Source of the DNA: Escherichia coli
GTDB taxonomy: Bacteria > Pseudomonadota > Gammaproteobacteria > Enterobacterales > Enterobacteriaceae
NCBI RefSeq assembly: GCF_016026235.1
Contig: NZ_CP065613.1
Direction: 5' to 3' (one strand)
DNA length: 64,000 bases
In this document: piece after piece, positions 1 through 60,242 of the stretch
Layout: each line of letters starts with the position of its first letter
Position numbering within the stretch: the first letter of the stretch is position 1
Made by a program: the position numbers and the translations under genes
The notes under the pieces: model-generated
Told to the model about the DNA's origin: nothing
Seen by the model: only the letters and a program-made list of their open reading frames with translations
Database searches by the model: none

Positions 1-5564
<5,564 letters not shown>

Positions 5565-54696: not shown

Positions 54697-54761
54697 AATG
54701 CTCTCCTTTTAAGATGTATGCCTTATACTAGCCGGAATATTTTTTGAAACGTGATGAACTC

Positions 54762-55679
54762 ATGGAATTAATTTTTTTAGGTACTTCGGCCGGTGTGCCA
54801 ACCCGCACGCGCAATGTCACGGCAATATTGCTTAACCTGCAACATCCGACCCAGAGCGGACTTTGGTTGTTTGACTGCGGTGAAGGCACCCAGCATCAGC
54901 TACTGCATACCGCCTTTAACCCTGGAAAACTGGACAAGATTTTTATCAGTCACCTTCATGGCGATCATCTTTTTGGTTTACCCGGCTTGCTGTGCAGTCG
55001 TTCTATGTCAGGCATTATCCAACCCTTAACGATTTATGGTCCGCAAGGTATCCGTGAATTTGTGGAGACCGCGCTGCGGATTAGCGGCTCATGGACCGAT
55101 TATCCGCTGGAAATTGTCGAAATTGGCGCTGGCGAAATTCTCGACGATGGCCTGCGCAAAGTGACCGCTTATCCAATGGAACACCCACTGGAATGTTATG
55201 GCTATCGTATTGAAGAACATGATAAACCGGGTGCATTAAATGCCCAGGCATTAAAAGCTGCTGGCGTGCCGCCTGGCCCACTGTTTCAGGAATTAAAAGC
55301 GGGCAAAACAATCACGCTGGAAGATGGAAGGCAGATTAACGGCGCAGATTACTTAGCTGCTCCAGTGCCAGGTAAAGCGCTCGCTATTTTCGGCGATACC
55401 GGCCCCTGCGATGCCGCACTTGACCTGGCTAAAGGTGTCGATGTCATGGTGCACGAAGCGACGCTGGATATAACCATGGAAGCCAAAGCCAATAGTCGCG
55501 GCCATAGCTCTACACGCCAGGCTGCGACACTGGCCCGTGAGGCTGGAGTCGGTAAGCTAATCATTACCCACGTCAGCTCGCGCTATGATGACAAAGGTTG
55601 TCAGCACCTGTTACGTGAATGCAGGTCAATTTTCCCGGCGACTGAACTAGCGAATGATTTCACCGTGTTTAACGTTTAA
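54762..55679 (+). CDS. rbn: ribonuclease BN / RNase Z (metallo-beta-lactamase fold)
   Basis: Track ORF 54744..55679 trimmed to [26 protein letters not shown]...; HxHxDH motif [10 protein letters not shown]. Confidence 0.93.
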
Positions 55680-55698
55680 CTCTGCTTATTATTAAAAA

Positions 55699-55719
55699 CA
55701 GGGCGAAACTTGCCCTGTT
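55699..55719 (+). terminator. candidate hairpin after rbn
   Basis: acagggc-gaaactt-gccctgt dyad; weak downstream U-tract (ttatcg). Confidence 0.35.
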
Positions 55720-55876
55720 ATCGCAACCCGCGCTACATATATCCACTCACACGGGCATATTGAGCGATTTTTGATATTTATTCATCTCCTTACGCACTAT
55801 ATTCAGAGCAATAAGTTGCCTCTTTTTATCTTCATTCAGCACAACCTTTGCAACTATTTGCAACTAAAAGGAGCAT

Positions 55877-57097
55877 ATGATGGTTACAGTTGTCAGCAAT
55901 TATTGTCAATTATCTCAAACCCAACTCAGTCAGACATTTGCAGAAAAATTTACTGTGACCGATGAATTACTGCAGTCTTTAAAAAAAACAGCGTTATCCG
56001 GAGATGAAGAAAGTATTGAGTTACTGCATAATATTGCGTTAGGTTATGATGAATTTGGAAAAAAAGCTGAAAATATTCTTTGCCATATTGTTAGAAACCC
56101 AACAAATGATACCCTATCGATTATCAAGCTTATAAAAAATGCCTGTTTAAAATTATATAATTTGGCACATACCGCAACCAATTCCCACCTTAAACCAACT
56201 GCTCCGGATAATTCAGATGATCTCCTGTTCAAAAAGCTATCCTCCCCTTCGAAATTAATGACAATTATCGGCGATGAAATTCCTCTTATATCTGAAAAAC
56301 AGTCGCTTTCGAAGGTACTTTTAAATGATGAGAATAATGAACTGAGTGATGGTACAAACTTCTGGGATAAAAATCGTCAATTAACCACAGATGAAATAGA
56401 TTGCTATCTTCAGAAGATCGCCGCTAATGCAAAAAATACTCAAGTCAATTATCCTACTGGTCTCTACGTCCCCTACTCCACCAGAACTCATCTGGAAGAC
56501 GCTCTCAATGATAATATTAAGAGCGATCCATCATGGCCGAAAGAAGTCCAGTTATTCCCCATAAATACTGGCGGACACTGGATATTAGTTTCGCTACAGA
56601 AAATAGTAAATGAAAAAAATAATACACAACAAATTAAATGCGTCATATTCAACTCATTGTGCGCACTAGGCCATGATAAAGAAAATTCACTTAAGCATGT
56701 CATTAATAGTTTTAATTCTGAACTCATAGGAGAAATGTCGAATAATAATATAAAAGTTCATTTAACTGAACCCGAGATAATATTTTTACATGCCGATCTT
56801 CAGCAACATTTAAGCCAAAGTTGCGGTGCATTTGTGTGCATGGCAGCCCAGGAAGTGATTGAACAAAGGGAAAGCTATTCTGACAGCGCCCCCTATACGT
56901 TATTAAAAAACTATGCTGACAGATTTAAAAAATATTCAGCAGAAGAGCAGTACGAAATTGATTTTCAACATCGACAGGTAAACAGAAATTGTTATTTAGA
57001 TAAATATGGCGATGCAAATATCAATCATTATTATAGAAACTTAGAAATAAAACACGCACAACCCAAAAATAGAGCATCAAGCAAAAGAGTAAGTTAA
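55877..57097 (+). CDS. elaD: deubiquitinase-like cysteine protease ElaD
   Basis: 406-aa [40 protein letters not shown]...; catalytic region ...[10 protein letters not shown]...; AT-rich, Asn/Lys-rich composition unlike neighbouring genes. Confidence 0.9.
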
Positions 57098-57473
57098 CAT
57101 CATTGTTAATTAATTCGACTAGTCAGTAAATATGCTGACTGGTCGAACATAGTTTACTAAAAAGTCATCACTGACTGATCATCCGCCAGTTCAATCTTCG
57201 GGTATTTCCAGCGTATCTCGGCACGCGATTGCTGGTCTGTTGATGTAGTGGATTGTTGTTGCTGACTTTTTTACCCTCAGATTTCTGCCCCCTGTCAACT
57301 CAATCTGCCAATAAATAACATAATTATATTTTTCCTTATATGAATTCCTTTTTAAAATAGCGAAGCCACTGTAAAAGATACTTTTTGTATAGATCTAACA
57401 ACCGTAATAAAATAAACACTCATAACTCATTATAAATAATGATAAATTAACGCCTTTTATTGATAATTTACAA

Positions 57474-58112
57474 ATGAAAAAATTTTCCTTTTGTTATATT
57501 ATTTCTGTTTTCACTCCCTCTGATTATTTTTTACCAACCCTGGGTCACTGCATTATCGCCAACGCCCCGACACGTAATTCCTGAGCAATTAGAAAAAATA
57601 GTTCGTTATCTTACACAAACTGTGCATCCACGTAATGCCGACAATAATGATAATCTGAATAGGTCCGTAGAGTATATAAAAGAGGTCTTTGTCAGTAGCG
57701 GTGCCAGAGTTACCGCGCAGGACGTCCCCGATTGGCTATTACGACTCTGCGCCTAGTAGCCAGGATTACCCTTACCCGCAATGTCCTGGCTTTGTCCCGA
57801 TCGGGGGGACTTTATTGCCTGGTCGGCAGAATACAGGATATCAACGCCGTTCGTCAGGTAAAAACGGCATTGTTATCATCCCGGGATTTATCTGTTTATT
57901 CTATGAATGCCCCATGGTTTATTAACGGTATTAATTTCTCTGACCGCCTTAATTATTGGCAACACGATATTCCCGCCGTAATGATTACTGACACCGCTTT
58001 TTATCGTAATAAACAAAACTACTTGCCCGGTGATATCGCAGACAGATTGAATTATCAGAAAATGGCTCAGGTGGTGGATGGTGTTATAACCTTGTTACAC
58101 AACAGTAAATAA
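57474..58112 (+). pseudogene. yfbL: remnant of M28-family peptidase gene yfbL (frameshifted and shortened)
   Basis: ATG at 57474 (MKKFSFCYIISVF..., signal-peptide-like) reaches a stop after about 33 codons. The downstream protein-like sequence is spread over two other frames (57689..57925 and 57732..58112, the latter ending ...MITDTAFYRNKQNYLPGDIADRLNYQKMAQVVDGVITLLHNSK). Confidence 0.6.
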
Positions 58113-58214
58113 TAAAAATTTCTCGAGGCGGGTCCAGAAACAGCGACATGTACATTTTATTTTCCCTCGTCTGTTTTAAGATGCGAAACATAAAATTCAA
58201 TGGAGGAAAAATAA

Positions 58215-58718
58215 ATGGGAATGATTGGTTATTTTGCAGAAATTGACTCAGAAAAGATTAACCAACTGCTTGAGTCTACTGAAAAACCTTTGATGGATAA
58301 TATACATGACACGCTTTCAGGATTACGCCGACTGGATATTGATAAACGCTGGGATTTTTTACACTTTGGGCTGACAGGCACCTCTGCGTTCGATCCAGCG
58401 AAGAATGATCCGCTGAGTCGTGCCGTGCTTGGTGAACACAGCCTCGAAGATGGTATAGATGGTTTCCTGGGATTGACATGGAATCAGGAGTTAGCCGCGA
58501 CAATCGACCGACTGGAATCACTGGATCGAAGTGAGCTGCGTAAAAAGTTTTCCATTAAGCGACTCAATGAAATGGAGATTTATCCGGGAGTGACCTTTTC
58601 AGAAGAGTTAGAGGGGCAACTCTTTGCTTCGATCATGCTTGATATGGAAAAGCTGATTAGCGCGTATCGACGTATGCTGCGACAAGGGAATCATGCGCTG
58701 ACGGTTATTGTTGGGTGA
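58215..58718 (+). CDS. yfbM: DUF1877 family protein YfbM
   Basis: 167 aa MGMIGYFAEIDSEKINQLLESTEKPLMDNIHDTLSGLRRLDIDKRWDFLHFGLTG... Confidence 0.88.
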   Translation: MGMIGYFAEIDSEKINQLLESTEKPLMDNIHDTLSGLRRLDIDKRWDFLHFGLTGTSAFDPAKNDPLSRAVLGEHSLEDGIDGFLGLTWNQELAATIDRLESLDRSELRKKFSIKRLNEMEIYPGVTFSEELEGQLFASIMLDMEKLISAYRRMLRQGNHALTVIVG

Positions 58719-58732
58719 TGGTGTCAGGGCAC

Positions 58733-58760
58733 CAAAAAAAACCGCCGAACATGTCGGCGG
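58733..58760 (-). terminator. rho-independent terminator at the end of the nuo operon (possibly bidirectional)
   Basis: ccgccgaacatgtcggcgg hairpin; on the minus strand it is followed by an 8-T run (plus-strand accaaaaaaaa). Confidence 0.7.
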
Positions 58761-58784
58761 CTTTCTGACTTACAAACTGATAGC

Positions 58785-60242
58785 TTACATCAGCGGCATT
58801 GCTAACCGCACAATGCTAATCAGCGGTTGTGGCCATACACCCAGTACCAGTACCAACAGTGCAGAGATCAGCACAACGATACCGCCCGCGCTGTACTGCC
58901 AGTTTGATGGTGCATCGCGACCCGGTTGTTCCGGTGCGTGCAGGTACAGGCTCACCGCCACGCGCAGGTAGTAGTAGAGGCCGATTGCCGAACCGACAAC
59001 CACGGCACCCACCAGCCACCACAAGTGTGCCTGGACACCGACCGCCAGCACGTAGAACTTACCGATAAAGCCCAGCGTCATCGGGATACCGGCCAGAGAC
59101 AGCATCATCACCGTCATCACTGCCGCGAGGATCGGACGATGCCAGAACAGACCGCGGTAAGAGAACAGGGAATCAGCATCCGGGCCACGATACGGGCTGG
59201 ACATCAGGCTGACCACGCCGAACGCGCCGAGGCTGCTGAACAGATAACCGGCCAGGTAAACCCCTACCGCTTCCATCGACATCTCGCCAGTTTGCAGCGC
59301 AATCAGCGCCACCAGCAGATAGCCGAGGTGAGAGATAGATGAGTAACCGAGCAGACGTTTGATATTGGTCTGGCTCAGCGCCATCAGGTTACCGAAGATG
59401 ATGGAGGCAAAGGCGATAATCGCCAGCACCACACGAATCGCTTCGCTGTCACCCACCGGTGCGTAGAGGAACAGACGCATCACTACACCGAAGATAGCGA
59501 TTTTGCTCGCCGTCGCCAGGAAAGTGGAAACCGGCGCAGGCGCGCCCTGGTATACGTCTGGCGTCCACAGGTGGAACGGCACCAGAGAGAGTTTGAAGCC
59601 GAGGCCAACAATCATCAGACCGAAACCTGCCAGCAACAGCGGCTCGTTGAGCATACCGTCGCCGAGGTTTTTACCCAGCGCGACAAACGACAGGTCGCCA
59701 GACTGCGCATACACCAGCGCCATACCGAACAGCAGGAAAGAAGACGCTGCGGCAGAAAGGATGGTGTATTTGATACTGGCTTCCAGCGAACGTTTCTGGC
59801 GGAAAGCGTAACCGACCAGGCCAAACAGCGGCAAAGAGATCAGTTCAATACCGAGGAACAGAGACGCCAGATGGTTGGCATTCGCCAGCAGGATCCCGCC
59901 CAGGGCGGCAATTAACACCAACAGGTAGAACTCATCCTTGTTGTCGTTATAGCCTTCAAGCCACGGGTAGGCGAAAGTACAGGTGGCGAGGCTCGCCAAC
60001 AATACCAGCCCGGTGTAAAGCATGGCGAAACCATCAACGCGCATCAGCGGCGTAACGTCCATAGCGCCCGCCTGGCCAACAAACCAGAGCGAAACCAGCG
60101 CCGCGTTAAGCCCAATAACCGAGAGCGTAGCGTTGAGGAAATGATTGCGTCGCCACGCAATGGAGAGCATCACAACCACCACCGTCAAGCCGACGATCAG
60201 CAACGGTAGCAGTGCGATCAGGTTTTGGGGAGTTATTGTCAT
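58785..60242 (-). CDS. nuoN: NADH-quinone oxidoreductase subunit N
   Basis: 485 aa [57 protein letters not shown]... Confidence 0.97.

Follow-up and report, generated by a model that had tools for sequence, protein, structure and literature searches.

A widespread yfbL pseudogene in the strain-variable elaD-nuoN interval of Escherichia coli

Background

ElaD is encoded by a horizontally acquired deubiquitinase gene, and the DNA beside it differs between strains of Escherichia coli. In K-12-type genomes the order is elaD, yfbK (on the minus strand), yfbL, yfbM, yfbN, yfbO, yfbP, nuoN. In the genome analyzed here, represented by a stretch of 64,000 nucleotides from contig NZ_CP065613.1 (assembly GCF_016026235.1; "the window" below), elaD and yfbM are separated by a non-coding gap that contains YfbL-like sequence. 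An earlier note, written from the sequence alone, had described that sequence as a decayed yfbL and had listed the genes of the K-12 map that are missing around it. The K-12 gene order that it gave matches a K-12-type genome. The questions raised by this locus are what the YfbL-like sequence is, how it came to be there, and whether the arrangement is unusual for the species.

The sequence at 57474-58112 is almost certainly a non-functional relic, a unitary pseudogene, of yfbL, the gene for a signal-peptide-bearing M28 zinc peptidase. It is also an already known, ordinary and widespread one: the PGAP/RefSeq annotation labels the locus a "frameshifted" pseudogene in strain 88-3493, O157:H7, E. 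coli B and ECONIH5. The literature searched contains no discussion of the decay of yfbL, and a 2025 paper on the distribution of ElaD does not mention yfbK, yfbL or yfbM.

Features and transcription signals of the region

The features of the region are collected in Table 1. The earlier note had placed the gap in a strain-variable stretch next to an atypically AT-rich elaD, and had proposed comparing the GC content of elaD with that of its neighbors. Both points are borne out: several strain arrangements exist, as described below, and elaD has a GC content of 34.9% and 57098-57473 one of 33.5%, whereas the figures are 51.6% in the whole window, 50.6% in rbn and 57.3% in nuoN.

Table 1. Features from rbn to nuoN, in window positions
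Feature	Position	Strand	Details
rbn	54744-55679	+	GC 50.6%
elaD	55877-57097	+	Intact, 406 aa; CE-clan deubiquitinase; Pfam ElaD_SseL-like_N, Peptidase_C48, ElaD-SseL-like_C; GC 34.9%
Non-coding stretch	57098-58214		elaD-yfbM gap
Hairpin	57114-57147		15-bp perfect inverted repeat just past the elaD stop; fold -24.7 kcal/mol, z = -7.4
yfbK scraps	57168-57339	-	vWA-domain protein gene, 1,728 bp in K-12; from alignment to K-12 (L001 6470-8197) and L003
AT-rich region upstream of yfbL	57340-57473	+	Haplotype strongly diverged from K-12
yfbL remnant, 5' part	57474-57729	+	Start codon and signal-peptide region, then residues up to 87
326-bp internal deletion junction	57729-57730	+	From base-level alignment
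yfbL remnant, 3' part	57730-58112	+	Runs to the original stop, 58110-58112
yfbM	58215-58718	+	Intact, 167 aa, DUF1877; stop 58716-58718
nuo operon intrinsic terminator	58736-58766	-	GC-rich hairpin 58742-58760, then eight U; fold -24.3 kcal/mol, z = -4.6
nuoN	58785-60242	-	Intact, 485 aa; from ORF and annotation in relatives; GC 57.3%

Two structured elements bracket the gap and yfbM. The hairpin past elaD is kept in L003, a genome with an intact yfbL, and in K-12, where elaD and yfbK converge on it from either side, so that it probably serves as a two-way terminator. At the other end, a minus-strand hairpin with eight consecutive U after it identifies the terminator of nuoN and the nuo operon, which is kept next to nuoN in K-12. 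The rules of a consensus terminator scan missed this element, and folding revealed it. Its hairpin begins 23 nt past the yfbM stop, in agreement with the earlier observation that yfbM directly abuts the nuo terminator, and yfbM presumably uses this terminator as well.

A permissive Rfam scan of 55600-58900 returned nothing above gathering score. Its one hit, a fluoride riboswitch candidate on the terminator hairpin, reached 15.8 bits where the gathering score is 34 (E = 0.57), and was dismissed as a chance match. A promoter consensus scan gave 10 promoter-like sites, compared with 10.2 in shuffled sequences, and thus no excess. The analysis brought no new gene to light.

Lesions of the yfbL remnant

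On either side of an internal gap, the remnant is 92-95% identical to intact yfbL by BLAST, and it occupies the syntenic position between elaD and yfbM; the resemblance is thus not due to chance. The remnant measures 639 bp and intact yfbL 972 bp. Base-by-base alignment with the intact L003 allele accounts for the difference with a 326-bp deletion between 57729 and 57730, a 5-bp loss just past the start codon (near 57485), and two 1-bp losses at approximately 57778 and 57820, which sum to the missing 333 bp. The large deletion removes residues 88-195 and two bases of codon 196, and its length is not a multiple of 3.

As a result of these lesions, the YfbL peptide can be traced only in pieces through frames 0, +1, +2, +1 and 0, with four frame switches. 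The 5' part is in frame 0 until the 5-bp loss and then in frame +1 to residue 87. The 3' part passes through frame +2 (57730-57777) and frame +1 (57778-57819) before a final 293 bp (57820-58112) in the same frame as the start codon. The ATG ORF that opens at 57474 (MKKFSFCYIISVF...) has 36 codons and stops at 57582-57584. The uninterrupted frame of approximately 320 codons that would mark a functional member of the M28 family is absent.

The earlier description of this remnant holds in outline and needs correction in detail. Its size of about 640 bp, its combination of internal deletion and frameshifting, its signal-peptide-like start at 57474 and its end at 58112 are all upheld. The first stop was put after about 33 codons, three too few, and the rest of the YfbL-like sequence was assigned to two other frames only, where all three are used. 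The proposed alignment to K-12 and other genomes shows an interval that is neither full length nor in frame, and a K-12 content that differs. Short direct repeats, which the note had suggested looking for at the deletion endpoints, are not present in register: ATTG occurs at both ends, one base off. Since these copies are out of register, a repeat-mediated origin of the 326-bp deletion, which was considered, finds no support in them.

Loss of the M28 active site

The intact YfbL of L003 matches Pfam Peptidase_M28 (PF04389) over residues 95-317 (E = 3.7e-25). In alignments with M28 aminopeptidases of solved structure, for example 1AMP, 3B3T and 2EK8, its motifs fall on the metal-binding core. 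We take the ligand set of the family to consist of the histidine of GAHYDS, the aspartate of GADDNASG, the two glutamates of SEEPP, the acidic residue of ALEMIG and the histidine of YHLPGD; the roles of these residues as zinc ligands and catalytic glutamate are assumed from established knowledge of the Vibrio/Aeromonas aminopeptidase. GAHYDS, GADDNASG, SEEPP and the acidic Glu195 of ALEMIG all fall inside deleted residues 88-195, a span that overlaps the ALEMIG motif. The remaining position, His294 of YHLPGD, is a tyrosine in the window (NYLPGD). The remnant thus retains neither the zinc ligands nor the catalytic glutamate that define M28 peptidases, and the surviving 126-aa and 44-aa ORFs have no Pfam match at E <= 0.01. 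With the catalytic core deleted and His294 replaced, the window allele cannot encode the peptidase.

It may be asked whether some part of the remnant has been re-used, with the 126-aa ORF (57732-58112) or the 36-aa ORF (57474-57584) serving as a new functional small protein. Both ORFs do exist; the shorter one is signal-peptide-like and still has the start codon and upstream region of the original gene, and the last 293 bp have returned to the original frame. However, the 126-aa ORF has only a TTG start and lacks a Pfam match, and in E. coli B and ECONIH5 a 7-bp deletion interrupts it. The N-terminal frame also varies among alleles, which have lost 7, 5 or 4 bp in this region and differ further by an indel in a T run, and third codon positions are not enriched in substitutions among the remnants (see below). 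New use of either ORF is therefore very unlikely.

Distribution of the deletion allele

Of 5,426 complete E. coli genomes, 2,032 (37%) have exactly this yfbL deletion junction, O157:H7 and E. coli B among them. The 326-bp segment itself is present in 3,311 of the same genomes (61%), so that the two states together describe 98.5% of them. These frequencies bear on the possibility that yfbL is in fact intact and that its frameshifts and gap arose through faulty sequencing or assembly. Single-base indels are a common type of error, and two of the lesions are of 1 bp, but 2,032 complete genomes, each sequenced independently, have the same 326-bp junction, and both 1-bp deletions occur in all five aligned remnants, which come from separate projects. 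The probability of error is negligible.

The window arrangement is also found in strain 88-3493, O157:H7 ATCC 35150, E. coli B and ECONIH5. Strain 88-3493 is the closest relative, with 99.8% identity over 3.1 kb. Other strains are organized differently. L003 has elaD, a yfbK scrap, an intact yfbL, yfbM and nuoN; DE17 has no elaD, and its intact yfbK, yfbL and yfbM adjoin nuoN. The differences from K-12 had been presented earlier as if the window were the odd one out. This implication does not hold: the deletion junction is in 37% of genomes, the direct junction of yfbM with the nuo terminator is in 78%, and the yfbNOP genes of K-12 are in only 19%.

Several further observations concern the diversity of this region. 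Across elaD-yfbM (55680-58790), identity is 99% or higher in only 9 of 5,420 matching records and 90-96% in most; to judge from these matches, the elaD-yfbM haplotype of the window strain appears uncommon and closest to that of 88-3493. Within it, 57219-57729 is approximately 80% identical to K-12 (L001 8068-8595), while the flanks are 94-96% identical, and the signal-peptide sequences of the alleles are strongly different (MKKITPLCFISLLL... and MKKIIFAFIILFVF...). Two deeply diverged haplotypes, extending from the 5' end of yfbK to the yfbL signal peptide, thus appear to coexist in E. coli. Additionally, in NZ_LR778152.1 and NZ_CM142790.1 the listed genes are yfbL, yfbM, a "deubiquitinase" and nuoN, and the match covers 54% of the query, which suggests a further arrangement, perhaps with a truncated elaD.

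Probable shared origin and continued decay

The five aligned remnants (those of O157:H7, E. coli B, ECONIH5, 88-3493 and the window) all have the 326-bp deletion and the two 1-bp deletions in identical form, which points to a single origin of the remnant alleles. Other lesions are restricted to particular lineages. E. coli B and ECONIH5 have a 7-bp deletion near the 3' end of yfbL and a deletion in a T run, O157 has a 1-bp insertion, and the loss past the start codon varies, from 7 bp in B through 5 bp in the window to 4 bp in O157 and ECONIH5.

The substitutions have a similar character. Between the window and O157 remnants there are 7, 7 and 2 differences at first, second and third codon positions, affecting 1 codon synonymously and 14 non-synonymously, whereas intact alleles differ at 12, 10 and 29 such positions, with 23 synonymous and 22 non-synonymous changes; these counts are small and come from a set of only five remnant alleles. 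Because the indels are lineage-specific and the remnants show no third-position excess, the yfbL remnant appears to be drifting without constraint. The locus thus combines three features of a unitary pseudogene, namely syntenic homology, disabling lesions and relaxed selection, the last of these as seen in a small sample.

Remains of yfbK

The earlier note had counted both yfbK and yfbNOP as missing from the window. For yfbNOP this is correct. In the case of yfbK it is not entirely so, as approximately 170 bp survive: the 3' end at 57168-57195, an inner piece of 18 bp at 57196-57213, and the 5' end, without its start codon, at approximately 57219-57339. The yfbK-deletion junction is found in at least 1,621 of 5,426 complete E. 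coli genomes (30%). L003 has the same yfbK scraps and yet an intact yfbL, which indicates that the decay of yfbK preceded the deletion in yfbL.

The 3' scrap of yfbK has itself lost 11 bp between 57179 and 57180 (GTCAGTCACAC in K-12 and L003). Among the matches listed from the 5,426 genomes, this loss is seen only in the window and in strain 88-3493, and it may be a private marker of the window lineage.

The yfbM-nuoN junction and yfbNOP

The window has no yfbNOP sequence at all, and the nuoN-side sequence shared with K-12 begins just 17 bp past the yfbM stop. The direct junction of yfbM with the terminator is present in 4,210 of 5,426 complete genomes (78%), and yfbNOP in 1,013 (19%). Identity to the K-12 copy is 99% or more in 985 of these 1,013, and the GC content of yfbNOP is 39-44% (K-12 L001 10185-12439). 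The low diversity, low GC content and minority status together suggest that yfbNOP is most likely a recent island inserted in K-12-like strains rather than something lost from the window strain. Its absence would then be the majority state and probably the ancestral one.

Two other observations were made at this junction. There are 27 genomes with far more divergent copies of yfbNOP, at 60-90% identity. In E. coli B (L004 2609-3081), the IS3-family element ISEcB1 lies between yfbM and nuoN, another independent rearrangement.

The same direction of change could be proposed for the entire interval, with the short form ancestral and insertions in K-12-type strains as the source of the 326 bp, yfbK and yfbNOP. 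In the case of yfbNOP such a gain is probably correct, as the figures above and the absence of any scraps in the window indicate; among the 78% of genomes with a direct yfbM-nuoN junction is a strain that lacks elaD but has yfbK and yfbL intact. It does not extend to the other two genes. The 326 bp of yfbL encode the conserved M28 core, and the frame is broken without them, so their presence is ancestral, while both ends and an inner fragment of yfbK are left in the window, a pattern explained by deletion alone. As an account of the whole locus, insertion is thus extremely unlikely.

Proposed sequence of events

Decay of an originally intact yfbL is the reading that we prefer, and from the comparisons above we infer the following order. 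The ancestor would already have been without most of yfbK when one 326-bp deletion, unaided by flanking repeats, removed residues 88-195 of YfbL. The two single-base losses would have come after this deletion or together with it. The resulting allele would then have reached approximately 37% of sequenced E. coli by descent and probably also by homologous recombination. From that point on, unconstrained drift would have led each lineage to add its own lesions; in the window lineage these would be the 5-bp loss past the start codon, the His294-to-Tyr change and the 11-bp loss in the yfbK scrap. The remnant probably persists only because its removal is not selected, although it may still carry transcription signals for the downstream yfbM.

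It is also conceivable that the joint loss of yfbK and yfbL was adaptive, or that the remnant is kept as a promoter or leader of yfbM. If the loss was adaptive, selection and recombination would have driven a founding allele that inactivates a pair consisting of an exported vWA protein and an M28 peptidase into over a third of E. coli. The lineages reached by it would include elaD-carrying intestinal ones such as O157:H7, while both genes stay intact in elaD-less strains such as DE17. We regard these possibilities as improbable.

If the order of events under neutral decay is as proposed, the locus provides an example of stepwise gene decay, in which yfbK goes first, then the core of yfbL, and then lineage-specific indels accumulate. 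It also illustrates that K-12 is not a neutral reference at elaD-nuoN, where its yfbNOP genes represent a minority state. The 326-bp deletion junction might be used as a simple marker of lineage. The decay of yfbL in itself implies no new biology.

Comparison with known systems

The closest intact counterpart is K-12 yfbL, which encodes an M28 family metallopeptidase of 323 aa. The window copy shares its chromosomal position, its stop codon and its spacer to yfbM, and is 80-96% identical to it over the retained parts. It differs in having lost 326 bp, in three further small deletions, in the absence of all core metal-binding motifs, and in the tyrosine that replaces His294.

The pseudogene annotated by RefSeq/PGAP as "hypothetical protein" or "zinc-binding metallopeptidase family protein" in O157:H7 ATCC 35150, B, ECONIH5 and 88-3493 has the same 326-bp junction and the same two 1-bp deletions. 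The window copy departs from it only in secondary lesions of its own lineage, seen in the window and 88-3493 alone: one more base lost past the start, the loss of 11 bp from the yfbK scrap, and several substitutions.

A broader parallel is provided by elaD itself, a CE-clan deubiquitinase gene that varies between E. coli pathotypes (PMC1847702). Its pseudogenes in E. coli and Shigella have one founding lesion common to all alleles, followed by further deterioration (Catic et al. 2007, PMC1847702). The yfbL remnant lies in the same strain-variable block, in which genes are present, absent or decayed according to lineage, and it likewise combines a shared founding lesion with subsequent decay. 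In the window, however, elaD is intact, with 406 aa and three Pfam domains, and it is the neighboring genes yfbK and yfbL that have decayed.
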